A DNA stretch of 64,000 bases from Candidatus Poribacteria bacterium (GCA_965208425.1 OZ242335.1:2119181-2183180), one strand, 5' to 3'; numbered from the stretch's first letter, positions 7,338 through 57,482 are shown. The notes: generated by a model from the letters alone, not told the origin. A program made the numbers and translations.

Positions 7338-7553
7338 TTTCAGTCTGTAGGTCGAGATTCATATCTCGACAGCCTTGTGCTTTATTCTTGACATCAATTT
7401 TGCTTTAGTATATCCTTTCGGCACTTACAATTCAATCGAAAAAGTCCTTGTGAATTGTAAGTCAACGAAGGGTACTGTATCTGAACACTAGTCACCAATT
7501 CTACCGTTTTGAAGATCTGTAAATACACGACGCAGGAGGTATAAGCAAATAAT

Positions 7554-9455: not shown

Positions 9456-12128
9456 ATGCAAATTCAGATTAAACCCAGTTTTCTGTTTTTCGTGTTTACG
9501 TTGTTCGTGTGCCTCAATTCCTTTTTCCTAGGGAATAGTGCTGCCCAAGTTCAAGATGAACCCATTGGTATATCTGCCAACTATACTTTTGAAACGATTG
9601 ATGTTCCCGGCGTCGAGTTTTTGGCGATAACAGCCAGTAGCGACTTTGAGGATTACGCCGGCTACACACTGAGCCCTGATGGTGAAAAGGAAGTCGGCTT
9701 TACACTCATTGATGGCGTTTTTGAGACCTATGATTTCCCCGGCTCGCAGAAAACCCATTTCTACGCGCTTGGTAATAATGGGCTAGCTGCGGGTCACTAC
9801 CAGGATAGCGACGGTCTGTATCATGGCGTTATTGTGGAAGATGGCGAAATGCGGCAATACCATTTTCCGGGTGCGGTCCAAACGGAGATATACGGGTATA
9901 GCGATTCGACGGGGGCAATGACGGGTAATTTTATTGATACTTCTGGCATTCGTCGTGGATTCTCAGGAGATGAAATAATTGAGTATCCCGGGGCAACGGC
10001 AACTTATGCCACTTTTGTGAACGACGTAGGCAATGTCGTGGGTAGCTACATAGATGCTGAAGGTACATATCATGTATACGTGCGTGGTCCCGGGGGTAGT
10101 TTTGCAACTCTGGATATTCCAGCAGGATCGGATCCCGAATACTTTTTTCTGCAAGGTATTAATAACGCCCTGATTGCTGTCGGTCGAGCCAAAGCGGTGG
10201 GTGATGTCCCGCGCACCTATGCCGGCAATGCCATCGGTCTACAAGAATTGCAGTTTCCGGGCAGCGTCAGCACGGAAGGCTGGAATGTTAATCAGGATGG
10301 CTCTATCGTGGGACACTATGACTCTGCGGATGGACGTAGACACGGGTTTATCGCTAGACCGAAAGCGGGTACTCCACAAGCACGACCCGGTGTTGTGCAG
10401 CCTGCCCTCAACTATACCTTTGAGAGTATTGATGTTCCCGGTGTAGATTTTCTGGCGGTAACTGCGAGTAGCGACTTTGAGGATTACGCCGGCAACATGC
10501 GGAGTGCTGATAGTGAAAAAGATATCGGCTTTACACTCATTGACGGCGTTTTTGAGACGTATGATTTCCCTGACTCGCAGGGCACCTATTTCTATGCACT
10601 CGGCAATGATGGGACAGCTGCGGGTCACTACCAAGATAGCGATGGTCTTTACCACGGTGTTATCTTAGAAAATGGCGAACTGCGTCAATATGATTTTCTA
10701 GGTGCTGTCGAAACGTTCATATACGGGTATAGTGATGCGACGGGACGACTAACGGGTAGTTTTATAGATGCTGATGGTGTTCGCCGTGGTTTCTCAGGAG
10801 ATCTAATAATTGAATACCCTGGGGCATCGGCAACCTACGCCGATTTTGTGAACTGGTCAGGCAATATCGTGGGCAGCTACGTGGATGCTGAAGGTATGTA
10901 TCATGCATACACGCGTAGTCCGGTGGGCAGATTTCTATCTATGGACCTTCCAAACGCAACAAATCTGGAATACTTTTTTCTGCACGGTCTCAACAATGCA
11001 AGGGCTGTCGTTGGTCGCGCCAAAGCGGTGGGTGATGTCCCGCGCACCTATGTCGGCAACCCCCTCAATCTACAAGAATTGCGGGTACCGGGCAGCGTCA
11101 GCACGGAAGGGTGGAATATCAATCAGGACGGCTCCGTCGTCGGACACTATGACTCAGCAGGTGGGCGCAGACATGGCTTTATTGCCAGACTCACTTCCGA
11201 GGCGGTGAGCGATTATTTTGGCAACGTCTTCAACGTCACACTGGCTAAAGGTCTGAACATGATCTCTGTGCCGTTGTCACCACCAGCGCCGATGACTGCA
11301 AAATCGCTTGCGGGGCTGACAGGGGCAACCACCGTCATCACACTCGATACGGCAAACCAGCAGTTCGTCGGGTGGACACCAACCGCACCGGACGACGGTT
11401 TTCCAATTGAGGGTGGGAAAGGTTATATCGTCAATGTTCCGGAAACTCGCCAATTTGCCTTCGTCGGGTCAGAATGGACAAATCAGACGGAAACTGCAGC
11501 AGCACCTGCTATCTCCGTGGAGCCGGTCCAAGAAGCGTGGGCGTTCGTTGTAAGTGGTCACTTGGACGGCAAAGCAGCGTTTGATGGTTATCAAGTTATC
11601 GTCCGTAATCTGAGGACAAATCACACAATAACCACCTCGGTACGTGGTGATTACTTCGCCGCTGCGACCGCTGACTTGGCACGGCGGAGTGTTGTCGAAG
11701 TTGGAGATGTGCTTGAAGTCCGTGTTATCGGGCCGGGTGGAAATGTTGAATCACACACCCTCAATTACGAAGTAACCCCTGAAGACCTAGCGAACGCGGT
11801 TATGTCTATCAGGCTTGATAGTATCGGTCAACCGAAGCTGACGCAGTTGTTGCAGAACTTCCCCAATCCGTTTAACCCTGAAACTTGGATTCCATACCAG
11901 CTTGAAACAGCCGCAGATGTCACCCTCCACATTTACCACACAGCAGGTGATATCGTGCGGACGCTGGATCTCGGTTTCAAGGGACAAGGGTTCTATATGA
12001 CGCGCTCTAGGGCAGCGTACTGGGATGGGCGCAATAACTTGGGCGAGCAGGTTGCTTCTGGGGTTTACTTCTACAGCTTACATACCCCTGACTTTTCAGC
12101 GACTCGGAAGATGTTAATTTTGAAGTAG
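9456..12128 (+). CDS. secreted HAF-like-repeat protein with C-terminal NPFNPET (FlgD-Ig / T9SS-type) sorting-like domain, paralog 1 of 3
   Basis: An 890-aa ORF with an AAAGGAG RBS. The signal peptide is MQIQIKPSFLFFVFTLFVCLNSFFLGNSAAQ. Two ~290-aa tandem super-repeats are each made of ~45-aa units of the pattern FPG..T..YGIN..G.VVG.Y.D..G..HGFIA, which is HAF/DUF3466-like. A conserved ~300-aa C-terminal module ends ...LLQNFPNPFNPETWIPYQLETAADVTLHIY...VASGVYFYSL...RKMLILK. Confidence 0.85.
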   Translation: MQIQIKPSFLFFVFTLFVCLNSFFLGNSAAQVQDEPIGISANYTFETIDVPGVEFLAITASSDFEDYAGYTLSPDGEKEVGFTLIDGVFETYDFPGSQKTHFYALGNNGLAAGHYQDSDGLYHGVIVEDGEMRQYHFPGAVQTEIYGYSDSTGAMTGNFIDTSGIRRGFSGDEIIEYPGATATYATFVNDVGNVVGSYIDAEGTYHVYVRGPGGSFATLDIPAGSDPEYFFLQGINNALIAVGRAKAVGDVPRTYAGNAIGLQELQFPGSVSTEGWNVNQDGSIVGHYDSADGRRHGFIARPKAGTPQARPGVVQPALNYTFESIDVPGVDFLAVTASSDFEDYAGNMRSADSEKDIGFTLIDGVFETYDFPDSQGTYFYALGNDGTAAGHYQDSDGLYHGVILENGELRQYDFLGAVETFIYGYSDATGRLTGSFIDADGVRRGFSGDLIIEYPGASATYADFVNWSGNIVGSYVDAEGMYHAYTRSPVGRFLSMDLPNATNLEYFFLHGLNNARAVVGRAKAVGDVPRTYVGNPLNLQELRVPGSVSTEGWNINQDGSVVGHYDSAGGRRHGFIARLTSEAVSDYFGNVFNVTLAKGLNMISVPLSPPAPMTAKSLAGLTGATTVITLDTANQQFVGWTPTAPDDGFPIEGGKGYIVNVPETRQFAFVGSEWTNQTETAAAPAISVEPVQEAWAFVVSGHLDGKAAFDGYQVIVRNLRTNHTITTSVRGDYFAAATADLARRSVVEVGDVLEVRVIGPGGNVESHTLNYEVTPEDLANAVMSIRLDSIGQPKLTQLLQNFPNPFNPETWIPYQLETAADVTLHIYHTAGDIVRTLDLGFKGQGFYMTRSRAAYWDGRNNLGEQVASGVYFYSLHTPDFSATRKMLILK

Positions 12129-12706
12129 CCCCGTAGGTTGGGTAGAGCGTTAGCGAAACCCAACATAATCAACTTTCGCTCTCTGGTAGGTGCGGTTTCC
12201 AACCGCACCGCATTCAATCCAATCCGGTAGGTGCGGTTTCCAACCGCACTGCATCAGCACAGAAAGTTCATGTAGGTCGAGATTCACATCTCGACAAAAT
12301 CTCTTGGAAAATTGACCTATAGGAGGGCTAAATGTAGGGGCAGGTTTCTTAATCCCGCCTGTCCCGATTTATCGGGGATCTATCGGGGTCTTGTGCCTGC
12401 CCAAAAAGATGAGCGCGGAGTAGCCCCGTAGGTTGGGCAGAGCGTTAGCGAAACCCAACATAATCAACTTTTGCCCTCTGGTAGGTGCGGTTTCATGAAG
12501 TTTAATTTATTAATTCGGTAATCCCGATTTTCCTCGAAACATAGGGTAGGCGCGGTTTTCAACCGCGCTGGCGTCGATAGCAAATTACCGAAGTATTTTT
12601 TTATCTTCATCCAACCGCACCGGTTTCAAATGTCTCATTAATTCTAAAATCTACCGTAAATTATAGAAATGGGCAACATCAGTCCACCGAAAAGGAGCTT
12701 TTCTTT
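12129..12706. repeat. BIME-like cluster of GTAGG-prefixed REP hairpins between paralogs 1 and 2
   Basis: It contains CCCCGTAGGTTGGGTAGAGCGTTAGCGAAACCCAAC x2 (12127, 12418), GTAGGTGCGGTTTCCAACCGCACC x3, GTAGGTCGAGATTCACATCTCGAC, GTAGGGGCAGGTTTCTTAATCCCGCCTGTCCCGATTTATCGGGG, and then the R-box at 12634. Confidence 0.85.
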
Positions 12707-15411
12707 ATGCACAGTCAGGCCAAACCCAATTTTCTGTTTTACATCTTTACGTTGTTCGTATGCCTCAATTCCTTTTTCTTAAGTAACACCGATGCACAAA
12801 CCGATAATGACTCAACTCCCCCACCGCCTGAATTCAGCTACACTTATGAGAGTATTGATGTCCCCGGCGTAAATTTTTTAGCGTTGACAGCGAGTTCTGA
12901 CTTTGAGGATTACGCGGGTTACACGCGTAGTGCTGATGGTGAAAAGGAAGTCGCCTTTACACTCATTGATGGGGTTTTTACGACCTATGATTTCCCCGGC
13001 TCGCAGAAAACTCGTTTCTATGCGCTTGGTAATGATGGGACAGCTGCGGGCCACTACCAAGATAGCGATGGTCTTTACCATGGTGTCGTCTTGAAAAATG
13101 GCGAATTGCGCCAGTACGATTTTGAGGGTGCAGTCCAAACGGAGATATATGGTTTCAGTGATGCAACGGGCGTTCTGACGGGTAATTTTATAGATGCTTC
13201 TGGCGTTCGCCGTGGATTCTCAGGGGACACAATCGTTGAAGCGCCTGATGCAACAGCAACATACGCCGATTTTGTGAACGCGAGTGGCGCTATCACAGGA
13301 AGTTACGTAGGTGCTGACGGTCTATATTATCCATACGTGCGCACCCTGAATGGCACATTTGTAATTCACGACTATCTGGATTCATCAACTCTGGAATACT
13401 TTTTTGTGCACGGTCTCACTGATACAAGGATTATCGTTGCACGAGCTAAAGCGATAGGTGATATTCCACGTTCCTATGTCGGCACATCCCAGCAAGGATT
13501 ATCTGAATTACAGTTTCCGGGCAGTGTTAGCACAGAGGGTTGGAATATTAATCAAGATGGGTCTGCCGTCGGGTATTACGACTCTGCGGATGGACGTAGA
13601 CACGGATTTATCGCCAGACCCACTGCGGAAACTGCTGAAAAATTCAGAGATATAGCTTATCCCCCCCCACCTGAATTCAATTATACTTATCAGAGCATTG
13701 ATGTTCCGGGAATAGATTTTCTGGCGTTGACGGCGAGCAGCGACTTTGGGGGGTATGCAGGCTACGCGCGAAGTCCTGATGGTGAAAAGGAAGTTGCGTT
13801 TACACTCATTGACGGTGTGTTTACAACGTATGATTTTCCCGGCTCACAGGGTACCTATTTCTATGCACTCGGCAATAATGGGTTAGCTGCAGGGCACTAC
13901 CAAGATAGCGATGGCCTTTACCATGGTGTCGTCTTGGAAAATGGTGAACTGCGCCAATACGATTTTGAGGGTGCGGTCCAAACGGAGATATATGGTTTCA
14001 GCGATGCAACGGGTGTTCTGACGGGTAATTTTATAGATGCTTCTGGTGTTCGTCGTGGATTTTCAGGGGACACAATCGTTGAAGCGCCTGATGCAACAGC
14101 AACATACGCCGATTTTGTGAACTCACAAGGTCTTGTCGTAGGCAGCTACATGGATGCTGATGGTTTATTTCATGCCTACGCGCGCACCTTGAGTGGTCGG
14201 TTTATACTTCTTGACTATCTTGACCCGCTAACTCTGGAATACTTTTTTTTACACGGTATTAACGACGGGGGGGAAGGGGTGTATTTGTGATTGCCCGATC
14301 CAAATTTGTGGATGATATTCCACGCTCCTATGTCGGCTCATATCTGTACGGGCTACACGAATTGTGGTTTCCGGGTAGCGTGAGCACAGAGGGTTGGAAT
14401 ATCAATCAGGACGGCTCCGTCGTCGGACACTATGACTCAGCAGATGGGCGCAGACACGGGTTTATTGCCAGACTCGGCACTAAATCAGAGAGCGATTATT
14501 TTAGTAACGCCTTCAATATCACGCTCGATAAAGGTTTGAACATGATTTCTGTGCCGTTGTCACCACCAACACCGATGACTGCGAAGTCACTTGCCGCGCT
14601 GACAGGGGCGACCACCGTCATCACACTCGATACGGCAAACCAGCAGTTCGTCGGGTGGACGCCAAGTGCACCGGACGACGGGTTTCCTATTGAAGGTGGG
14701 AAAGGTTATATCGTCAATGTTCCGGAAACTCGCGAATTTGCCTTCGTCGGGTCAGAATGGACAAATCAGACGGAAACTGCAGCAGCACCTGCTATCTCCG
14801 TGGAGCCGGTCCAAGAAGCGTGGGCGTTCGTTGTAAGTGGTCACTTGGACGGCAAAGCAGCGTTTGACGATTACCAAGTAATCGTCCGTAACCTCAGAAC
14901 AGACAGGGTGATAACTGCTTCGGTGCAAGGTGATTACTTCGCCGCGGCAACCGCCGACTTGGCGCGCCGGAGCGTTGTCGAAGTTGGAGATGTCATTGAA
15001 GTCCGTGTTATTGGGCCGGGTGGAAATGTTGAATCACACACGCTCAACTTTGAAGTAACCCCTGAGGACCTAGCGAACGCGGTTATGTCTATCAGGCTTG
15101 ACAGTATCGGTCAACCGAAACTGACGCAGCTGTTGCAGAACTTCCCCAATCCGTTCAACCCGGAGACATGGATTCCATACCAGCTTGAAACAGCCGCAGA
15201 TGTCACCCTCCAGATTTATGATACGTCTGGCGATCTGGTGCGGACATTAGATCTCGGTTTCAAGGGACAAGGGTTCTATATGACACGCTCTAGGGCAGCG
15301 TACTGGGATGGGCGTAACAATTTGGGCGAGCAGGTTGCCTCTGGGATTTACTTCTACAGTTTGCATACCCCTGACTTTTCAGCGACTCGGAAGATGTTAA
15401 TTTTGAAGTAG
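12707..15411 (+). pseudogene. secreted HAF-like-repeat protein paralog 2, reading frame broken at a G7 homopolymer (about 14265-14290). The ORF track splits it into 12707-14290 and 14287-15411.
   Basis: The N-terminal part (527 aa, MHSQAKPNFLFYIFTLFVCLNSFFL...) stops at HGINDGGEGVYL*. The downstream frame continues IARSKFVDDIPRSYVGS..., homologous to the IVARAKAIGDIPRSY segment of the intact repeats. The C-terminal module is more than 90% identical to those of paralogs 1 and 3. Confidence 0.75.
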
Positions 15412-15709
15412 CCCCGTAGGTTGGGTAGAGCGTTAGCGAAACCCAACATAATCAACTATGGTGGATTCTAAAAACAGATAGACACTTTCGTCCTTTGGTA
15501 GGTGCGGTTTCCAACCGCACCGCATCGGCACAGTTAGAAACAGTGCCTACCAAACCGGAGAACGGTAGGTGCGGTTTCCTAACCGCACCCGTGCCGACTC
15601 GTCGAGCATCCTTGATAAATCGGGATTTGAAGTGTCTCATTAATTCTAAGATTCACTATAAATTATAGGAATGGACAACATTAGTCCACCGAAAGGGAGT
15701 TTTTTCTTT

Positions 15710-18382
15710 ATGCACAATCAGACCAAACCCAATTTTCTGTTTTTCGTGTTTATGTTGTTCGTATGCCTCAATTCCTTTTTCCTAGGGAATAGTGCTGCCC
15801 AAGTTCAAGATGAACCCGTTGGTATATCTGCCAACTATACTTTTGAAACGATCGACGTTCCGGGCGTAGATTTTTTAGCGTTGACGGCAAGTTCCGATTT
15901 TGAGGATTATGCCGGTTACACGAAAAGTGCTGATGGTGAAAAAAATGTCGGTTTTACACTGATTGATGGCATTTTTATAACCTACGATTTCCCTGGTGCC
16001 CAAAACACGTATTTCTACGCGCTTGGTAATGATGGGCGCGCTGCGGGCTACTACGAAGATAGCGAGGGTTTGCACCACGGTGTTATCTTGGAAGATGGTG
16101 AGATACGGCAATACGATTTCCCCGATGCTGTGCAAACAGAGATATACGGTATTAGTGACGCGACGGGAGTATTGACGGGTAATTGGATAGATGCTGCTGG
16201 TGTTCAGCGTGGATTTACAGGAGACACAATCCTTGAGTTCCCCGGGGCAACAGCAACATTCTCCGATTTCGTCAACTCCGCAGGCAATATGTTCGGCAGC
16301 TACATAGATGCTGACGGGCTATTTCAAGAATATGCATATTCCTCGGATGGCAGGTATATAGCTTTCGATCTCGCAAATGCAGAAAATCTCGAATTCTTTT
16401 ATGTGCATGGTTATAACGATACAAAGACAAGGGTTGCCCGAGGTAAAGTGTTCGGTGATGTCACACGCACTTATCTAGGTACATTTGTTGACGGTCTGCG
16501 GGAATTGAAGGTTCCGGGCAGCGTCAGCACAGAAGGTTATAATATCAATCAGGACGGTTCTGTTGTCGGGTTCTATGAGACACCCGATGGACGTAGACAC
16601 GGGTTTATTGCCAAACCCATTGAAGTCGTTGATAAACCCGTTTTCCAAATCAGTGGCTTCAACTATACTTATGAGAATATTGATGTACCGGGCGTAGATT
16701 TTCTGTCGTTGACAGCAAGTTCTGACTATGAAGATTACGCGGGCTACACGAAAAGTGCCGATGGCGAAAAAATGGTCGCCTTTACCCTTATTGATGGTGT
16801 TTTTAAGACCTACGATTTTCCCGGTTCACAGAATACCTATTTCTTTGCACTCGGTAATAATGGCGATGCTGCCGGCTACTACGAGGATAGCGAGGGGCAC
16901 CACCGCGGTATCGTCCTACAAAATGGCGAGTTACGCCAATACGATTTTCCGGGCTCCGTTGAAACAGAAATATACGGCATTTCTGATGCAACGGGGAACC
17001 TGACGGGTAATTGGACAGATGCTTCCGGCGTGCGTCGCGGATTCACAGCGGACATAATCGTTGAGTATCCGGGGGCATCGGAAACATTCGCCGATTTTAT
17101 CAATGCGTCAGGGGGTATGGTCGGCAGCTACGTAGATGCCGAGGGTACATATACACCATACCTACGCGCTGGAGATGGCAGGTTTGTATCTTTCGACCTT
17201 CCGACCGAAGAAACTTATGAATTCTTTTATGTGCACGGTCAAACCGATACGAAGATTTCCGTTGCTCGAGGCAAAGTCGTAGGTGATGTTCCCCGCACTT
17301 ATGTCGGTTCATTCCTTGGGGGGCTCCATGAATTGAAAGTTCCAGGCAGCGTTTCAACGGAAGGGTACAATATCAATCAGGACGTTTCTGTCGTTGGACA
17401 CTATGACTCCCCGGATGGACGCAGACACGGCTTTATCGCAAGACTCGTTGATAAAGCAGAGAGCGAGCATTTCGGCAATACTTATACCGTCACGCTGGAT
17501 AAAGGTCTGAACATGATCTCTGTGCCGTTGTCACCACCAGCGCCGATGACTGCAAAATCGCTTGCGGGGCTGACAGGAGCGACAACCGTCATCACACTCG
17601 ATACGGCAAACCAGCAATTTGTCGGGTGGACACCAACCTCACCGGACGACGGTTTTCCAATTGAAGGTGGAAAAGGCTATATCGTCAATGTTCCGGAAAC
17701 TCGCGAATTTGCCTTTGTCGGGTCAGAATGGACAAATCAGACGGAAACTGCAGCAGCACCCGGTATATCCGCGGATCCAGTCCAAGAAGCGTGGGCGTTC
17801 GTTGTGAGTGGTCACTTGGAGGGTAAACAAGCGTTTGACGGTTATCAAGTAATCGTCCGTAATCTGAGAACAAACGAGGTGATAACCACCGCAGTACGAG
17901 GCGATTACTTCGCCGCTGCAACCGCCGACTTGGCGCGGCGGAGCGTCGTCGAAGTTGGAGATGTCATTGAGGTCGATGTCATCGGTCCCGACAGAAATGT
18001 TGAATCACACACCCTCAATTATGAAGTGACCCCTGAAGACCTAGCGAATGCGGTTATGTCTATCAGGCTTGACAGTATCGGTCAACCGAAGCTGACTCAG
18101 TTGTTGCAGAACTTCCCCAATCCGTTCAACCCGGAGACATGGATTCCATATCAGCTTGAAACAGCCGCAGATGTCACCCTCCAGATTTATGATACGTCTG
18201 GCGATCTTGTGCGGACGTTGGATCTCGGTTTCAAGGGACAAGGGTTCTATATGACGCGCTCTCGGGCCGCGTACTGGGACGGACGCAACAACTTGGGTGA
18301 GCAGGTTGCCTCTGGAATTTACTTCTACAGTTTGCATACCCCCGACTTTTCGGCGACACGCAAGATGCTGATTTTGAAGTAG
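15710..18382 (+). CDS. secreted HAF-like-repeat protein with C-terminal NPFNPET sorting-like domain, paralog 3 of 3
   Basis: The ORF track starts at 15671. Homology to the paralog N-termini and the GAAAGGGAG RBS favour the ATG at 15710 (MHNQTKPNFLFFVFMLFVCLNSFFLGNSAAQ). The architecture matches paralog 1. The C-terminal 300 aa are almost identical to those of paralogs 1 and 2. Confidence 0.85.
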   Translation: MHNQTKPNFLFFVFMLFVCLNSFFLGNSAAQVQDEPVGISANYTFETIDVPGVDFLALTASSDFEDYAGYTKSADGEKNVGFTLIDGIFITYDFPGAQNTYFYALGNDGRAAGYYEDSEGLHHGVILEDGEIRQYDFPDAVQTEIYGISDATGVLTGNWIDAAGVQRGFTGDTILEFPGATATFSDFVNSAGNMFGSYIDADGLFQEYAYSSDGRYIAFDLANAENLEFFYVHGYNDTKTRVARGKVFGDVTRTYLGTFVDGLRELKVPGSVSTEGYNINQDGSVVGFYETPDGRRHGFIAKPIEVVDKPVFQISGFNYTYENIDVPGVDFLSLTASSDYEDYAGYTKSADGEKMVAFTLIDGVFKTYDFPGSQNTYFFALGNNGDAAGYYEDSEGHHRGIVLQNGELRQYDFPGSVETEIYGISDATGNLTGNWTDASGVRRGFTADIIVEYPGASETFADFINASGGMVGSYVDAEGTYTPYLRAGDGRFVSFDLPTEETYEFFYVHGQTDTKISVARGKVVGDVPRTYVGSFLGGLHELKVPGSVSTEGYNINQDVSVVGHYDSPDGRRHGFIARLVDKAESEHFGNTYTVTLDKGLNMISVPLSPPAPMTAKSLAGLTGATTVITLDTANQQFVGWTPTSPDDGFPIEGGKGYIVNVPETREFAFVGSEWTNQTETAAAPGISADPVQEAWAFVVSGHLEGKQAFDGYQVIVRNLRTNEVITTAVRGDYFAAATADLARRSVVEVGDVIEVDVIGPDRNVESHTLNYEVTPEDLANAVMSIRLDSIGQPKLTQLLQNFPNPFNPETWIPYQLETAADVTLQIYDTSGDLVRTLDLGFKGQGFYMTRSRAAYWDGRNNLGEQVASGIYFYSLHTPDFSATRKMLILK

Positions 18383-18456
18383 CTCCGTAGGTTGGGTAGA
18401 GCGTTAGCGAAACCCAACATGATGAGTTTAATGCGGAGTCAGGAAGGACTAAAAAA

Positions 18457-43582: not shown

Positions 43583-44521
43583 CTACTTTGTTACCTTTAT
43601 TTTCCCTAAAAGCGTTGGAGTCAATTCCTGTGGCGAGACAGATAGGGTGGCATTCCGTTCTTGTGGGGCAAAATCATCGCCTGCCCCGTAGGTCAGCTGT
43701 GTCAACCTCCTATCAGCGAGCCGGAACTGAAAAATCTTCCATTGATTGTTGTCCTTCCATTTACCAGCAAAGAGAACCGACTTGCCATCGACAGAAAAAG
43801 CGGCGGAATGATAAACCATCTCTAGCCTAGCTGGGACAGGCACCCGCCGCGATCTAATAATTGCTCTCTTAAATTGGTTAAGCGTGGCAATAACGAGCGT
43901 GTCCTTATCTGCCGGCATGTCCGCTTCTGCATACAGAAGCTGCTGCCCATCGGGCGACCACCCTTCCAAAATCATCGCTCTTGCTATCTCGGGGTGCTCT
44001 GCAAGCCGCGCCGGTGCTCTGCCCTGTGCGTTTATCACATAAATAGAGTAGCTACCAAAAGCAAATTGGGTTCCATCGGGCGACCACTTCGGTTTGTCAA
44101 TAAACCGTCCATGTCGTGTGATCTGTTTTACATTACTGCCATCGGCCTCCATCACGAACAGGGAAGACGGGTTCTTGCGCCTGCTGGTAAATGCAATTCG
44201 TGAACCGTCCGGCGACCATGTAGGAGATGAATCAGACGCAGGGTGATTGGTCAGATTGCGTTGATTCCTCCCATCGGCATCCATCAGATATATCTCCTTG
44301 TTCCCGTCTCGATCGCTTTCAAAGGCAATCTGTCGTCCATCGGGAGACCAAACAGGCGAGGAATCGGCAGCCGCGTTAAATGTCAACCGCGCGGGATTGT
44401 TCCCGTTGGCGTTCATAGTATAGATTTCTTCATTTCCCTCCCGATTGGAATAAAAGACAATTTTGCCCCAAAGGGGAGGAGTGACAAGCCAAAGGCAAGC
44501 CACGAAAATATAGATACGCAT
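43583..44521 (-). CDS. TolB-like periplasmic beta-propeller (PD40/WD40-like repeat) protein, paralog 1 of 3
   Basis: A 312-aa ORF with a signal peptide. It has repeated PD40 units (SPVWSPDGRQIAFESDRDGNKEIYLMDADG...). Confidence 0.85.
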   Translation of the reverse strand: MRIYIFVACLWLVTPPLWGKIVFYSNREGNEEIYTMNANGNNPARLTFNAAADSSPVWSPDGRQIAFESDRDGNKEIYLMDADGRNQRNLTNHPASDSSPTWSPDGSRIAFTSRRKNPSSLFVMEADGSNVKQITRHGRFIDKPKWSPDGTQFAFGSYSIYVINAQGRAPARLAEHPEIARAMILEGWSPDGQQLLYAEADMPADKDTLVIATLNQFKRAIIRSRRVPVPARLEMVYHSAAFSVDGKSVLFAGKWKDNNQWKIFQFRLADRRLTQLTYGAGDDFAPQERNATLSVSPQELTPTLLGKIKVTK

Positions 44522-44538
44522 CGTTACACCTCTGATTT

Positions 44539-45483
44539 TTACTTGGTTGTCTTAATCTCACCCCAAAGCGTTGAGGTTAGTTGCTGTGGCGAGACCGACA
44601 GAGGCGAAAGCCATTCGTGTGGGGCAAAGTCATCGCCTCTGCTGTCAGTCAACTGTGTCAACTTCCTATCCGCCAGCCGGAACCGATAAATATCCCAAGT
44701 ATCGGCATCATTGGGTTTACCAGAAAAAAGTATCGACTTCCCATCAGCAGAAAAAGCAGCAGAATGGAAAACTATCTGTAACCGACTTGACACCGGCACC
44801 CGCCTCCATTGGATAATCATTCTCCGTCTGATAGGCTCTAGCGTGGCAACAACGAGCGTGTGTTTGTCTGATGCCAAGGCCGCCTCTGAAAACAAAATCT
44901 GCGTTCCATCCGGTGACCACCCTTCCAAGAACATCGCGCTCTCCACATTGGGACGTTTTGAAACCTTCCACGGCGCTCTGCCCTCAGCGTTGACCACATA
45001 AATAGGACTGTCACCAAAAGCGATTTGCTTGCCAGTCGGCGACCACTTTGATTTGGTGACAAGCCGCCAGCCCTTAACCCCCTTCACATTTCCCCCATCA
45101 GCAGCCATCATAAAAAGGGAGGAAAAACCGTCCGGATTACGTTCGCTGATAAAAACAATCTGTGAACCATCGGGCGACCAGTCAGGATAGGAGTCAACCG
45201 CAAGATGATTGCTCAGATTGCGCGGATTCGTTCCGTCAGCGCTCATCACATACACCTCCATGTTCAAATCGAAATCGCTCTGAAACAGAATCTGCTCCCC
45301 ATCAGGAGACCAAACGGGATAAGAATCGCTTGCCCCGTTGAACGTGAGTCGAATCTGGTGGGTCCCGTCCGATTTCATCGTGTAGATTTCTTCGTTTCCA
45401 TCACGATTGGAATAAAATACAATTTTGCCATGAAGGGGGCTCGTGGTAAGCCAAAGAATCGTCACAAGCAGGAAGTTTCGCAT
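44539..45483 (-). CDS. TolB-like periplasmic beta-propeller protein, paralog 2 of 3
   Basis: A 314-aa ORF with a signal peptide and PD40 repeats. It shares the C-terminal tail [20 protein letters not shown] with paralog 3. Confidence 0.85.
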   Translation of the reverse strand: MRNFLLVTILWLTTSPLHGKIVFYSNRDGNEEIYTMKSDGTHQIRLTFNGASDSYPVWSPDGEQILFQSDFDLNMEVYVMSADGTNPRNLSNHLAVDSYPDWSPDGSQIVFISERNPDGFSSLFMMAADGGNVKGVKGWRLVTKSKWSPTGKQIAFGDSPIYVVNAEGRAPWKVSKRPNVESAMFLEGWSPDGTQILFSEAALASDKHTLVVATLEPIRRRMIIQWRRVPVSSRLQIVFHSAAFSADGKSILFSGKPNDADTWDIYRFRLADRKLTQLTDSRGDDFAPHEWLSPLSVSPQQLTSTLWGEIKTTK

Positions 45484-45492
45484 AGAACACCT

Positions 45493-46464
45493 CTATTTCG
45501 CTGTCTTAATCTCACCCCAAAGCGTTGAGGTCAGTTGCTGTGGCGAGACCGACAGGCGCAGATTCCACTCTTGTGGAGCACCATCTCTGCCCGGACTGTC
45601 GGTCAACTGTATCAGCTGTTTATCAATCAATCTAAAGCGATAGATATTCCTGTTACCCTCCTGTTTGCTACTAAAAAGGATAGACTTGCCATCAGCAGAG
45701 AAACAAAGGTTATGAAAAGGCATCGGTGGCATCTTCACCGGCACCCGTTTGAAAACCTGTTGCGGTTTTGACGGGTGTAGGGAGGCAATAACCGGGGTGG
45801 GCTCAACCGCTATATCATTTACCACCTCTTTATACAAAATCTGTTTCCCATCGGACGACCAGCCGCCCAAAAGTCGCCATGTGTCCGGTATCGTTTCAGT
45901 GACCTGCCATAGGCCCGTGCCATCGGGACGAATGGCAAAGATGTTTCCCGTCTCTGCACCATCGGGACCAATAGGATGCAATTCTGACCCCTCAAAGAGT
46001 ATCCATTGTCCATCGGGCGACCACTTGGGGTCTCCAGCCCCCCAAAACTCTGTCACCTGTTGGACATTGCCGCCATCGGCGTCCATCACGAAGATGTTAT
46101 AGATATGGTCTTGATCGTCATCCTTATACCTCTGAAACGCAATATGATTTCCGTCAGGAGACCAACTGGGCGATTCATCGTCGAAGGAATGGGTCAGCCG
46201 CCGTTGATTGGTTCCATCGGCGTCCACCACATAAATACCACCGCTGTCGTCATGATAGCTATGGAACACAATCTGTCGTCCGTTGGGAGACCAAGCAGGA
46301 TGGGCACCATCTACATCGTTGAATGTCAGCCGTGTCAGGTTGCTCCCGTCCGAGTTCATCGTGTAGATTTCAGCGTTTCCACCACGAGTGGAATGAAACA
46401 CAATTTTAGCTTCAAGGGTGTTGGTAGCAAGCCAAAGGCAAGCCACAGCGATAATAATGCGCAT
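45493..46464 (-). CDS. TolB-like periplasmic beta-propeller protein, paralog 3 of 3
   Basis: A TGGAGA RBS favours the ATG at 46464 ([25 protein letters not shown]). The ORF track extends to 46479. PD40 repeats are present. Confidence 0.85.
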
Positions 46465-46981
46465 AATAAACATCTCCATTTACCCATCGCTGAACAAAAC
46501 GCCTAGGCAACATACAAGAACCATGCCAATCTCCGATGCCCTGTCTATTCGGTTTAACAGCGATATTAACCGTGCAAGTGTTCAATAAATGAACAAGAGT
46601 GTTCATGAAATGCCCCCCTTCTAAACCTATCCTCGACCAGTTGGGGATTCAAAGTAACTTGTGGGTCCCCTATTGGATTTATCCGTCTTTTCACGTTTCA
46701 CGCATCACGCATCATGTTTCACGTTTTAACTTTTTTATGGTATTTTACATAAAAAACATATAAAAACATTTGCAAAACTGCGTTGCGTGTGGTATTATTA
46801 ACGCCCGGAATCAACTAGTGAACCTAACTATGGTAAATTAAAAAAATAAGTAGACATTTACCAATAACTCCGACCTACGCGAAGTTTCCCAAGTCCCCCT
46901 GACAAGGCGGATTTAGGGGGTTGGGAGTGTCTAAGTAATTCTAAAATCTACCATAATTAACCTTGTGCACCCGCCCACAAA

Positions 46982-53221: not shown

Positions 53222-53596
53222 ATGAGTCAGCCAAAAATTACCGCTTATATGAAACCTGTTTGCGGTTGGAGCAATGGTGTCCGCGCGATCTTCCAAAAAT
53301 ATGGTTTGGAATACGACGATCGCGACATTATCAACAACGCAGATAACTATCGTGAAATGGTCGAGAAGAGTGGTCAGCCACTTCAACCGACAATTGAGAT
53401 CAATGACGAGATTATCGCTGATGTCAGCGGCGACGAAGTCGAAGCATACCTCATCGCAAAAGGTTATGTCCAACAGAGTGATGCCGAGGCTGGCGTGCCG
53501 ACAGACGCGGCATGTGAAGACCACGGCGAAACAGTCGATGTCTCGTTCTCAGGTGGGAAATTGACCAACTGGGCAAGCAACCTGTTTTCAAAATAA
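53222..53596 (+). CDS. glutaredoxin-like thioredoxin-fold protein with C-terminal extension
   Basis: A 124-aa ORF with an AAAGGAA RBS. KITAYMKPVCGWSNGVRAIFQKYGLEYDDRDI resembles the glutaredoxin/NrdH fold, with a CGWS active-site variant. Confidence 0.5.
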   Translation: MSQPKITAYMKPVCGWSNGVRAIFQKYGLEYDDRDIINNADNYREMVEKSGQPLQPTIEINDEIIADVSGDEVEAYLIAKGYVQQSDAEAGVPTDAACEDHGETVDVSFSGGKLTNWASNLFSK

Positions 53597-53599
53597 ATC

Positions 53600-53660
53600 C
53601 GTAATGCGTAAAACGTGAAACGTAAAAACATTCATTGTTACGTTTTACGTTTTACGCCTT
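53600..53660. promoter_or_regulatory. dyad-symmetric heptad-repeat element (GCGTAAAACGTGAAACGTAAAAAC / GTTACGTTTTACGTTTTACGC) between the grx-like gene and sufS
   Basis: This is an imperfect ~21-bp-arm inverted repeat built from (A/T)ACGT(G/T)AA heptads. Related heptad clusters lie at 2006-2030, 37503-37535, 43508-43532, 46688-46727, 53161-53192 and 55663-55700. Confidence 0.55.
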
Positions 53661-53691
53661 CATCCTTGGAATCCCGATGCACGCCCAACCC

Positions 53692-54939
53692 ATGAACAAT
53701 TTACTCAATGAACTTGATATCGAAGCTATCCGAAGCGATTTTTCCATTCTACAAACGGAAAACGATCTACCCTTGATCTATCTGGATAGCGCCGCGACCT
53801 CCCAAACACCGGATTGCGTCATTGAGGCGATGGATGCATATTACCGGACCTATAACTCAAATATACATCGGGGCATCTACCGTATTTCCGAGGAAGCGAC
53901 CGCCAAGTATGAGGAGGCGCGAAAGCGGATCGGACGGTTCATCAATGCCCGCCGTTCCAGCCAAATTATCTTTACACGAAACACCACCGAATCGATCAAC
54001 TTAGTTGCATATAGTTGGGGGAGTGCCAATCTCCGAGAGGGCGATGAAATCCTTGTCACGGTAATGGAACACCACAGCAACCTCCTACCGTGGCAGTTGC
54101 TATCCCAACGCACCGGAGCGAAGCTGCGATTTATTGAAATCACCGACGAAGGGGTATTGCAGCTTGATGATTTGGAAACGCTGTTGACAGAACGCACCAA
54201 GATAGTTGCAATGACCCACGTTTCCAACGTCCTCGGTACTATCAATCCCGTTCAGGAACTTATAGCCGCTGCCCACGGTGTCGGCGCGAAAGTGCTGATT
54301 GATGGTGCACAGAGCGTGCCGCATTTTGACGTGGATGTACAGGAGCTAGATTGCGATTTTCTCGCTTTTTCAGGGCACAAAATGTGCGGTCCCACCGGCA
54401 TAGGCGTTCTGTACGGCAAGTCAGACCTCTTGGAGGAGATGCCGCCATTTTTGGGCGGTGGTTCGATGATCCGCTCCGTCCAGCGTGAAAGTTCGACCTA
54501 CGCCGATGTGCCAGCCAAATTTGAAGCAGGGACGCCAGCCATTTCAGAAGCAATCGGACTTGGAGCTGCCGTAGACTATCTTGACAACGTTGGATTAGAA
54601 GCGATCTTTGTGCATGAGCAAGAGTTACTTGAATATGCACACCAAAAACTGGTCGAAATTGAGGGCATTACCATCTATGGTCCCAAGCCCCGGCAAAAAA
54701 CAGGAGCAATCACATTTAACTTGGAGGGGATCCACCCTCACGATTTAGCAGGCGTCTTAGATACGGTTGGAGTAGCAGTCCGCGCCGGCCACCATTGTGC
54801 ACAACCGCTCATGCATAAATTTGGGGTTATCGCTACAGTCCGCGCAAGTTTCTACCTTTACAACAAACTTGACGAGATCGACACCCTGCATGAAGGATTG
54901 CTGAAAGCCCAACGTATGCTGACACGGAGACGAAGATGA
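53692..54939 (+). CDS. sufS: cysteine desulfurase SufS
   Basis: The ORF track starts at 53635; a more likely start is 53692 (MNNLLNELDIEAIRSDFSIL...). Conserved motifs are PLIYLDSAATSQTP, HHSN, the SGHKMCGPTGIGVLYG PLP-lysine motif and the RAGHHCAQP catalytic Cys loop. Confidence 0.9.
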   Translation: MNNLLNELDIEAIRSDFSILQTENDLPLIYLDSAATSQTPDCVIEAMDAYYRTYNSNIHRGIYRISEEATAKYEEARKRIGRFINARRSSQIIFTRNTTESINLVAYSWGSANLREGDEILVTVMEHHSNLLPWQLLSQRTGAKLRFIEITDEGVLQLDDLETLLTERTKIVAMTHVSNVLGTINPVQELIAAAHGVGAKVLIDGAQSVPHFDVDVQELDCDFLAFSGHKMCGPTGIGVLYGKSDLLEEMPPFLGGGSMIRSVQRESSTYADVPAKFEAGTPAISEAIGLGAAVDYLDNVGLEAIFVHEQELLEYAHQKLVEIEGITIYGPKPRQKTGAITFNLEGIHPHDLAGVLDTVGVAVRAGHHCAQPLMHKFGVIATVRASFYLYNKLDEIDTLHEGLLKAQRMLTRRRR

Positions 54940-55334
54940 ACATTTACGAAGAAGACATTCTCGATCATTACGAAAACCCAAGCAATTACGGAACCCTTGA
55001 GAATCCAGACATCTCTTATGAAGAGGACAATCCCCTATGCGGCGATCAGATTCGTATGGATCTCAAGGTAGAGGACGGTGTTATAACCGACCTGCGGTTC
55101 TGTGGACACGGTTGCACTATCAGCCAAGCAGCCGCTTCAATGTTGACAGAAGAGGTTAAGGGCAAACATCTAAATGAAGTCAAACAGTTAAGCAGAGATG
55201 ATATTTTAGATATGCTCGGTATCCCCTTAGGTCCCGTCCGTCTCAAGTGTGGACTGTTAGCACTCAAAGTGCTAAAAGCCGGTGCGTATGGCATCAAGGG
55301 TTGGCCCGGAGAAGAAGACGAGGAGACGGAATGA
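54936..55334 (+). CDS. sufU: SUF-system NifU/IscU-family scaffold protein SufU
   Basis: A 132-aa ORF. Its ATGA overlaps the sufS stop. It has the NPLCGDQIRMDLKVEDGVITDLRFCGHGCTIS three-Cys scaffold. Confidence 0.85.
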   Translation: MNIYEEDILDHYENPSNYGTLENPDISYEEDNPLCGDQIRMDLKVEDGVITDLRFCGHGCTISQAAASMLTEEVKGKHLNEVKQLSRDDILDMLGIPLGPVRLKCGLLALKVLKAGAYGIKGWPGEEDEETE

Positions 55335-55645
55335 GCGAGTTTTTTGAGGTCGCAAAAGTCAGCGAACTGCCACCGGGGGGGAAAAAACTGGTTGAGGTGG
55401 ACGACATACCCGTCGCGCTATTCAACGTGAACGGCGAGTTTTTCGCCATCGAAGATGTCTGCACCCACGATGGAGGTCCCCTCGCTGAAGGCGAACTCGA
55501 CGGCGACGAGATCGAATGCCCGCGACACGGAGCACGTTTCAACGTCTGCACCGGTGCAGCACTGTGTATGCCAGCGACCGAACCTGTCGAGTGTTACGAA
55601 GTCAAAGTTGAGGGCGATGCGGTTTTCGTCCGCACAGATTATTAA
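55331..55645 (+). CDS. Rieske [2Fe-2S] ferredoxin-like protein
   Basis: The start at 55331 (MSEFFEV) overlaps the sufU stop with ATGA. CTHDGGPL...CPRHGARF gives the CxH...CxxH Rieske ligands. The ORF-track start at 55247 is probably an over-extension. Confidence 0.8.
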   Translation: MSEFFEVAKVSELPPGGKKLVEVDDIPVALFNVNGEFFAIEDVCTHDGGPLAEGELDGDEIECPRHGARFNVCTGAALCMPATEPVECYEVKVEGDAVFVRTDY

Positions 55646-55722
55646 ACCTTTGGTGCTAGTTGGTTTCACGTTTTACGTTTTACGCATCACGTTTTACTCT
55701 CAGTTGTGAATGGAGGATTCTG

Positions 55723-56022
55723 ATGGTAACAGAAGATTCTGTATTTGAAGCGGTCAAAGAGATTATCGATCCAGAGGTTGGTATCAATATTGTTGATATG
55801 GGACTGATTTACGGCGTTGATATTGAGGACGAAACTGTTAACATCACAATGACCCTCACCAGCCCAGGCTGTCCTGCCGGTGGACAACTTATCAATGGAA
55901 CGCAGCATGTCACCCAACAACTTGAGGGTGTTGACGAGGTGAACATCAATGTCGTTTGGACGCCGCGTTGGACCCCAGAGATGATGACCGAAGAAGCTAA
56001 GGACGAGTTAGGTATCTTTTAA
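55723..56022 (+). CDS. SufT/DUF59 (MIP18-family) Fe-S assembly accessory protein
   Basis: A GGAGGA RBS precedes the ATG at 55723 (MVTEDSVFEAVKEIIDPEVGINIVDMGLIYGV...LTSPGCP...). This is the typical DUF59 signature. Confidence 0.8.
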   Translation: MVTEDSVFEAVKEIIDPEVGINIVDMGLIYGVDIEDETVNITMTLTSPGCPAGGQLINGTQHVTQQLEGVDEVNINVVWTPRWTPEMMTEEAKDELGIF

Positions 56023-56073
56023 CCTAGAGGCATCTAATTCTCCTGTGGGAGGGATTTCCCAATCCCGACGCTC

Positions 56074-56442
56074 ATGAGACAGCAACAACCAAAAACGATC
56101 AAAAGGTTGGGGAACGACGGTCTACAAATCCTCTGGAAAGATGGGCACGAGAGCGAATACACCTATCCATATCTCAGGCGTATGTGTCCATGTGCAGAGT
56201 GTTCAACAATAAGGCACAGGGGACAGGACGTTCACTCCCTATTCGGTCCAGAAGGACTCGGCGATCCCAACCAGATTTCAGTGCCAGCCGATACCCAACC
56301 CCTTAACCTTGAACTTGTTGGTCGTTATGCCATCCAGTTTACTTGGAGCGATGGCCATTCGACCGGCATCTATTCTTTTGAAACACTCAGAGAAATCTGC
56401 CCTTGTCCGCGGTGTGTCTCGAATGATGAAAGGAAGATTTGA
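56074..56442 (+). CDS. DUF971 domain protein
   Basis: A 122-aa ORF with two copies of the W.DGH...Y....LR..CPC..C motif (LQILWKDGHESEYTYPYLRRMCPCAEC; FTWSDGHSTGIYSFETLREICPCPRC). Confidence 0.7.
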   Translation: MRQQQPKTIKRLGNDGLQILWKDGHESEYTYPYLRRMCPCAECSTIRHRGQDVHSLFGPEGLGDPNQISVPADTQPLNLELVGRYAIQFTWSDGHSTGIYSFETLREICPCPRCVSNDERKI

Positions 56443-56696
56443 CGATGAAGCGTCTGAACTGGGAGCAAGCCGATTCGCACAAAGCCAAACAGATATGGGA
56501 GGAATACCAGGAGCAGCATAATCTTTCAGATCGAATTGGGCAAACAGCGGGAATCGATCCGAAAAGTAAACGCATTTGGTTTGGCTCTTCAATTCGAGAT
56601 ATTGTTGTGAAAAGGACTAACGAAGGCTTGAGTTCTCCGCTTTTCTTTCAACGAGTCGGCTCTGAAACCTATTTTCGCAAGGGTGGTCGCCGGTGA
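56439..56696 (+). CDS. hypothetical small protein, likely translationally coupled to the downstream retropepsin-like protease
   Basis: An 85-aa ORF. It overlaps both the upstream and the downstream gene by 4 nt. Its GC content is lower than in the suf genes. Confidence 0.4.
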   Translation: MTMKRLNWEQADSHKAKQIWEEYQEQHNLSDRIGQTAGIDPKSKRIWFGSSIRDIVVKRTNEGLSSPLFFQRVGSETYFRKGGRR

Positions 56697-57055
56697 TTCA
56701 CGGAACGGTCTCCGTTGATGGTGTGCCAACAATCCCTCTGTCAATTGCTAGTCAAGATTGGAGGGCTACTATTGACACAGGCTTCAACGGCGATCTGGAA
56801 TTGCCTGAATCTCTACGAGATTCTTTGAATGCTCGTTATGTTGGTCAAGCGACTTCTGCTTTAGCCGGAGGCCAAACGATTGAAGAAGCTGTTTATTTAG
56901 TCGATTTTCCTTTTGATGGTGAAGTCATTCAGGCAGAGGCGACTTTCGTTGTCGAGCATCATATTCTGATAGGTACTTGTCTGTTGCGAGAGTATCGTTT
57001 ACAGATTAATTTTGTACTCCAAACTGTTGAATTGGAAAAGGTTGCTATTTCATAA
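56693..57055 (+). CDS. retropepsin-like (clan AA) aspartic protease
   Basis: A 120-aa ORF. IDTGFNGDLELP contains the D-T/S-G catalytic triad in its usual context. The size and the hydrophobic C-terminal dimerization region fit bacterial clan AA proteases. Confidence 0.6.
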   Translation: MIHGTVSVDGVPTIPLSIASQDWRATIDTGFNGDLELPESLRDSLNARYVGQATSALAGGQTIEEAVYLVDFPFDGEVIQAEATFVVEHHILIGTCLLREYRLQINFVLQTVELEKVAIS

Positions 57056-57110
57056 CTAAGGAAATCTGTCCCTGTCCGCAGTGTACTTAATCGAAACTGA
57101 GGTATAAAAA

Positions 57111-57482
57111 TTGAAAACAGCAGACACCTCTCCCTCCGAAGTGCCTCCACCATTTCAGCCAGAGAAACACGAAATCTCGGTCCAAGAACTCAAGGGTAAA
57201 CTCGATCAAGGCGAACCGATCCAACTTATTGATGTTCGAGAACCGGTGGAACATCAGATCGTTTGTCTTGAAGAGGCACAACTTATCCCGATGAATGATC
57301 TCCCCCAACATATTGAGCAACTCGATCCGAGCCAAGAAATCATACTCCATTGTCATCACGGAATACGAAGTATGCAAGTCGCCTACTACCTATACCAGAA
57401 CGGTTTCCAAAATGTGAAAAGTTTGACCGGCGGAATTGACCAGTGGGCAATTGAAATTGATCCCACACTAAATCGTTACTGA
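57111..57482 (+). CDS. rhodanese-like sulfurtransferase domain protein
   Basis: A 123-aa ORF with the IQLIDVREPVEH...ILHCHHGIRS active-site Cys loop (CHHGIRS). Confidence 0.85.
   Translation: MKTADTSPSEVPPPFQPEKHEISVQELKGKLDQGEPIQLIDVREPVEHQIVCLEEAQLIPMNDLPQHIEQLDPSQEIILHCHHGIRSMQVAYYLYQNGFQNVKSLTGGIDQWAIEIDPTLNRY

Follow-up and report, generated by a model that had tools for sequence, protein, structure and literature searches.

The second of three tandemly arranged paralogous genes in the 64,000-nt stretch of Poribacteria DNA analysed here (hereafter the window) is interrupted by a frame break at a run of seven G (G7), where it is exactly one base shorter than its orthologues in other Candidatus Poribacteria species. 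What is established is that the gene is broken at this position, that its orthologues are intact, that no other lesions occur in it and that broken copies are frequent elsewhere in the family. With a confidence just short of even we favour the reading that a genuine and very recent loss of one base has inactivated one of three largely redundant tandem copies. The base would accordingly be missing in the cells, beyond the assembly alone, and the truncated product of paralog 2 is presumably non-functional. Weights were assigned to four readings and fall in the order real loss, under-called base, reversible switch and recoding, the rest of the weight being left unspecified.

All three genes lie on the plus strand and encode proteins of the same architecture: a signal peptide, two repeats of ~280 aa, a middle domain and a T9SS type A C-terminal sorting domain. 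Paralog 1 (9456-12128, 890 aa) and paralog 3 (15671-18382, 903 aa, with an alternative start at 15710) are intact. Paralog 2 as a whole gene (12707-15411, plus strand) is split at the G7 and encodes 901 aa once one G is added. The similarity between the three paralogs is mosaic. Identity is 55-85% in their N-terminal and propeller parts and reaches 85-97% in their C-terminal halves, a pattern which, judged from the sequences, suggests that the middle and sorting domains may be under concerted evolution or gene conversion. The longest exact match between paralogs has 133 nt and is shared by paralogs 1 and 2. The exact repeat length was also considered as a guide to the sequencing platform, for which a maximum of 133 nt is uninformative.

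Directly after the stop codons of paralogs 1 to 3 follows a conserved 36-nt hairpin element (CCGTAGGTTGGGTAGAGCGTTAGCGAAACCCAACAT) on the plus strand (12131-12166, 15414-15449 and 18385-18420), with an extra, second copy located after paralog 1 (12426-12461). The element forms a hairpin of 7 bp (-15 kcal/mol, z = -2.1) and its core recurs exactly behind family genes of L001, L028, L048 and L054, four further genomes of Poribacteria. A role as a terminator lacking a T-run, or as a REP-like 3' element, is conceivable. Since one copy is placed right after the true stop of paralog 2, the 3' end of this gene unit is intact.

The upstream frame of paralog 2 (12707-14290, plus strand, 527 aa), which was delimited as an ORF and by alignment to orthologues, comprises the signal peptide, propeller 1 and ~85% of propeller 2. 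It then runs through five out-of-frame codons and ends with ...LEYFFLHGINDGGEGVYL* at a TGA (14288-14290, plus strand), precisely where a previous sequence-only reading of this DNA had placed its end. The adjacent frame is open from 14263, reads ...GVFVIARSKFVDDIPRSYVGS... and proceeds through the T9SS C-terminal domain to the stop at 15411. As called, the downstream frame covers 14287-15411 (plus strand, 374 aa), because gene callers choose the GTG at 14287-14289 as start of the fragment, which overlaps the TGA. In this downstream part the remainder of propeller 2 is followed by the middle domain and by the T9SS type A sorting domain; the part carries no signal peptide of its own. The same reading had held that the adjacent frame continues the segment found in intact repeats, which is IIVARAKAIGDIPRSY in repeat 1 of paralog 2. 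This is borne out by our searches, in which the homology of the downstream frame was far above chance (~1100 family proteins matched at E<=1e-80).

Also the location of the shift that had been proposed, GACGGGGGGGAAGGGG at 14264-14279, agrees with our alignments. It contains the G7 run (14267-14273, plus strand), at which one additional G restores the 901 aa, followed by a G4 run (14276-14279, plus strand) that belongs to the same purine-rich loop codons and reads AGG GGT in the restored frame. Codons start at positions 2 mod 3 in the upstream frame versus 1 mod 3 in the downstream frame, such that either a gain of one nucleotide (G8) or a loss of two (G5) rejoins one ORF of 901 or 900 aa, respectively. 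The G7 is found at codon 521 of 901, 58% into the gene and in a propeller loop. Relative to the five remaining repeat copies in the window, the affected repeat of paralog 2 carries a net insertion of 11 nt at this place. The odd length arises because the loop is a conserved 12-nt (4-aa) feature of the orthologue group from which one base is missing.

The downstream ORF of paralog 2 scores 27.4 bits against TIGR04183 (cutoff 23), which identifies its end as a T9SS type A sorting domain (TIGR04183 / PF18962), and 37.6 bits against FlgD_ig (cutoff 27). Matches to HAF_rpt (TIGR02913, cutoff 22.65) were weak, with 26.0 bits for paralog 1, 21.2 bits for paralog 3 and 17.1 and 16.6 bits for the two halves of paralog 2. 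In a Pfam search the propeller and middle domains matched no family. For P0063, a close orthologue, the AlphaFold model (mean pLDDT 68.6, repeat regions mostly 75-90) comprises two domains that are all-beta (residues 45-305 and 326-590), and its top PDB matches are tandem beta-propeller proteins. In this model the site of the frame break corresponds to a low-confidence surface loop (521-525) between the strands 510-518 and 528-534 of propeller 2. The window holds a second tandem paralog array, consisting of three consecutive PD40/WD40-like beta-propeller genes of ~315 aa each (43583-46479, minus strand). PD40/Tricorn-like genes also flank family genes in L093 and L094.

Both in L093, the locus of P0063, and in about 28 orthologues of further Candidatus Poribacteria species, the gene is in frame and exactly one base longer at the site; the orthologues of paralog 2 have 900-905 aa and are uninterrupted. 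The closest orthologue, L001, has the codons GAT GGA GGG GGA AGG GGT (DGGGRG) and L093 has GAT GGA GCG GGA AGG GGC (DGAGRG), while the remaining ones read GAG GGC GAG GGA AGG AGT or GAT GCA GAG GGA AGC GGT (EGEGRS or DAEGSG). A run of at least six G at the position of the break is absent in all ~30 orthologues compared, the sole related case being L008 with a G6 in the adjacent second run. The presence of ~30 in-frame orthologues without a long G run shows that the G7 is specific to this lineage, recent, and not a conserved slippery tract.

Aligned with L001 along its entire length, paralog 2 differs by just two indels. One has a length not divisible by three and faces the A of GGAGGGGGA, the other has 3 nt and is in frame. 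The window sequence thus equals the GGAGGGGGA of its closest orthologue minus the single A, for which a slip in a pre-existing G tract is not required. From the orthologue alignment, the GGGGGGGA of the window can have arisen either by loss of this A or by a synonymous A>G change that gave G8, followed by the loss of one G. With one G added, paralog 2 reads DGGGRGVFVIARSK... as do P0065, P0079 and L001, and the restored protein, judged by eye, is nearly identical to the closest orthologues over the next ~80 residues. On these alignments the frame of paralog 2 is disrupted relative to intact orthologues. The best relatives of the window in genome, metagenome and protein collections reached ~90% identity at the nucleotide level and 91-92% at the protein level, and all related loci belong to MAGs of Candidatus Poribacteria (sponge symbionts). 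A metagenome scan for the flanks of the G7 with variable tract length gave 0 matches. A protein-guided metagenome scan had a top match of 77% identity and found no conspecific sequence.

For the break the sequence-only reading had offered phase variation, pseudogenisation and sequencing error. Pseudogene and error are both retained here along with its placement of the break, while its emphasis on poly-G phase variation is at odds with the absence of the tract in ~30 orthologues. Under phase variation the G tract would be a reversible slipped-strand switch that sets a surface-protein copy off (G7) or on (G8) within the symbiont population. Such a switch would agree with a poly-G run in the coding sequence of a gene that is present in several copies and encodes a secreted surface protein, as well as with an off state that is a clean single step away from the in-frame state. 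At least one other family copy, in the short-read MAG L058 (~14007-14033), is broken at or near a C7, in the proline inter-propeller linker, and points in the same direction. However, the tract is not kept among the orthologues, which are interrupted and in frame at this place (GGA GGG GGA, GGA GCG GGA, GGC GAG GGA, GCA GAG GGA), and the G7 lies far from the 5' end of the gene. Long G/C runs are moreover not enriched. A first-order Markov model predicts 5.2 runs of at least 7 nt for the 64-kb window, which has 4; a G7 is in itself unremarkable. Across Poribacteria loci totalling 1.79 Mb the counts for lengths 5 to 8 were 1423, 232, 31 and 2, plus one run of 11, i.e. they drop geometrically with length. 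Seven G are at the low end of mutable or switching lengths, poly-G contingency tracts having typically at least 8 nt.

With a tract that is unconserved, short and in the middle of the gene, and with no enrichment of G/C runs, the proposal of a classic slipped-strand poly-G switch finds no support. We consider it improbable that the tract acts in this way, and slightly more so that G7/G8 is a real reversible switch of one Poribacteria-specific, T9SS-exported double-propeller surface protein. If true, Poribacteria would gain their first described contingency locus, which might be tied to host or phage interaction. A full-text literature search returned no report of phase variation in Poribacteria, and in the literature on Poribacteria pseudogenes or T9SS nothing relevant was found.

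Recoding would provide full-length protein from the G7 allele as it stands. Ribosomes might slip by -1 on GGG GGG G, or RNA polymerase might slip and add a G to the mRNA. After a -1 shift the Gly tRNA would re-pair perfectly within the G7 and translation would lead into the orthologous peptide DGGGRGVF, with the 0-frame stop positioned five codons beyond the run; the peptide expected to span the site is ...HGINDGGGRGVFVIAR.... Against this, C GGG GGG G does not constitute a canonical X XXY YYZ heptamer with A/U at Y, and the 100 nt downstream of the G7 fold no better than shuffled sequence (z = -0.23). A Shine-Dalgarno-like stimulator was not found upstream of the run, and the arrangement is conserved in no orthologue. 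Known transcriptional slippage needs longer runs, which are mostly A/T. Programmed frameshifting was rejected given that slippery motif, structure and conservation are all lacking, and recoding in either form appears highly improbable to us.

A more serious competitor, to which we give a probability well below even, is a consensus error. In this case the true genome would have G8 in frame (GAC GGG GGG GGA AGG), the long-read assembly would have under-called it by one base, and the gene would be intact. The missing base falls within the longest G run of the window. With one G added, the protein agrees with its orthologues in the loop and past it, and paralog 2 has no further defect. The protein P0121 is 100% identical to the downstream ORF and is carried on a single contig of 6,807,964 nt, from which it follows that the window stems from a chromosome-scale assembly, like other chromosome-scale Poribacteria MAGs. 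Related ENA records have contig names in the style of metaMDBG. This assembler compresses homopolymers, and its authors describe the residual errors in HiFi metagenomes as 'mostly homopolymers' (PMC11392814). The source assembly is thus probably a long-read assembly, for which we infer platform and coverage.

On the other hand, a consensus error requires a true G8, a length which is rare (2 runs of 8 and 1 of 11 per 1.79 Mb), and, on top of it, an A>G change by which the window would differ from both closest orthologues. It would furthermore have to be an isolated case. Among the 41 within-gene homopolymers of at least 6 nt in the window, counted with the two halves of paralog 2 as one gene, the break coincides with the G7 only and 40 are in unbroken frames. 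The latter include a C8 (13661-13668) and a T8 (14243) inside paralog 2 itself. Other broken genes were not found across the 64 kb. The 40 clean homopolymers and the absence of split genes indicate that the window has no general homopolymer problem. Broken family copies are also not commoner in long-contig (4/141) than in short-read (~7/67) assemblies. The position of the break in the longest G run of the window by itself favours either an error or a genuine slip at a transient G8.

The C8 at 13661-13668, which is the longest G/C homopolymer of the window, encodes PPPP in the inter-propeller linker of paralog 2 and is in frame. A further G7 (55375-55381) and a C7 (32338-32344) are present elsewhere in the window. 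Adjacent ORF pairs on the same strand were considered as further split genes and rejected, since their members are complete genes of different Pfam families or propeller genes in their own right (NifU + Rieske, xylose-isomerase-like + GFO/IDH, the three separate PD40 propeller genes, and others). A gene cluster for Fe-S clusters and sulfur handling (53222-57482, plus strand) encodes a glutaredoxin, a class-V aminotransferase (cysteine desulfurase-like), NifU_N, Rieske, FeS_assembly_P, GBBH-like_N and a rhodanese.

The age of the break was approached through codon changes polarised with four outgroups. Above the break the window lineage has 21 synonymous versus 19 non-synonymous changes, while below the break it has 21 versus 5. 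The latter ratio shows that the downstream part of paralog 2 was kept by purifying selection until very recently. No second lesion was found in paralog 2, both halves being otherwise open, and together with the 21:5 ratio this means that any inactivation is very young. An assembly error would give just the same changes below the break. With neither a second lesion nor relaxed selection, a young pseudogene is therefore indistinguishable from an assembly error by sequence alone. To judge from the C-terminal halves of the paralogs and their high identity, gene conversion could moreover keep a dead copy clean-looking.

A comparison within the whole family speaks for the real loss. In protein searches and in the loci L001-L096 the family comprises 1773 proteins at E<=1e-50, all of them Poribacteria sequences, which fall into size classes of ~615 aa (one propeller repeat, as checked in P0122), ~900 aa (two repeats) and ~1450 aa. 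Family genes are often present in several copies per locus. A tblastn scan of the fetched loci revealed ~11 frame-broken copies among ~208. In L029 (~7409-7427) the break is due to an 8-nt tandem duplication (CATACGTG twice). L083 (~1290) and L084 (~2810), from two JGI assemblies, carry the identical insertion of one G (G3>G4) in the HGFIA motif. Further broken copies, besides that of L058, are located in L041 (~23121) and in L048 (~6858 and 13972). The duplication in L029 and the same additional G in both L083 and L084 are not typical read errors. With ~11 of ~208 copies broken, some of them in ways beyond read error, genuine decay of copies is common in this family. The chance of a consensus error is 0.3-3% per 2.7-kb gene at QV50-60 by our own estimate. 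Set against this, the ~3-10% of broken family copies give prior odds in favour of a real break.

C-terminal fragments of 372-377 aa from various genomes share their start residue with the fragment of the window. A recurrent break at the propeller-2 loop was considered in this context and rejected, as the three copies inspected (L094, L095 and L096) break 30-150 codons further upstream. The shared start (within 14264-14289 of the window, L094 ~4001, L095 ~3001, L096 ~992) appears to be an artefact of gene callers, which repeatedly choose a GTG (or equivalent) a few codons past the propeller-2 loop. Such starts create a misleading database cluster of 372-377-aa 'proteins'.

If the base was indeed lost in the cells, it would have hit four Gly/Arg-rich loop codons in propeller 2 that only this orthologue group possesses, where the ancestral sequence would have resembled GAT GGA GGG GGA AGG. 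The single A of this sequence would have been lost, or a synonymous A>G change would have produced a G8 that slipped to G7. Translation would then stop five codons past the break. The resulting 527-aa product would be cut off before the final blades of propeller 2 and would have neither a middle nor a sorting domain; for lack of the latter it should not be displayed on the surface. Display would likewise be excluded for the 374-aa remainder, which would have no signal peptide. Paralog 2 would accordingly be a young pseudogene, or a null allele that happened to be caught by the consensus. The G7 would be a by-product or, at the utmost, a transient hotspot, and no switch would have evolved here. 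Since the intact paralogs 1 and 3 flank paralog 2, its loss should be tolerated.

One-base frameshifts in redundant paralogs are already well known, and the break is an ordinary example of them. If real, it adds one more decaying copy to a large, fast-turnover family of secreted propeller proteins in sponge symbionts; if an error, it calls for caution in the annotation of long-read MAGs. Only a demonstrated reversible polymorphism of the tract length would make the G7 interesting, because phase variation is not known from uncultivated sponge symbionts. A useful by-product of the analysis is the context of the gene: a very large Poribacteria family of T9SS cargo in tandem arrays, with putative concerted evolution and ~3-10% of its copies broken.

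Several known systems can be compared with paralog 2. Poly-G and poly-C contingency loci are found in Neisseria (opa/pilC), Haemophilus (lic) and in the poly-G genes of Campylobacter and Helicobacter. Paralog 2 resembles them as a surface-protein gene with a coding G homopolymer that is one repeat unit out of frame. It differs from them in its tract, which is unconserved in orthologues, short (7) and placed in a mid-gene structural loop, with no enrichment of tracts in the genome. With homopolymer errors of long reads (HiFi/nanopore) it has in common a longest G run that is one base short, a chromosome-scale contig and a rescue by one base. Unlike what such errors would lead one to expect, no other homopolymer in the 64 kb is hit, and the G8 required is unusual for Poribacteria. 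As a T9SS type A cargo with HAF-like beta-propeller repeats, paralog 2 fits by its C-terminal 90 aa, which pass both TIGR04183 and FlgD_ig, and by the two modelled propellers. It departs from that group in its propeller and middle domains, which are without Pfam family, and in being confined to Poribacteria in these searches. While paralog 2 carries neither the second lesion nor the relaxed selection of a frameshift pseudogene, it shares with young pseudogenes of this type in tandem paralog arrays the single indel that is not a multiple of three, the early stop, the intact neighbours and the family members that are broken elsewhere.
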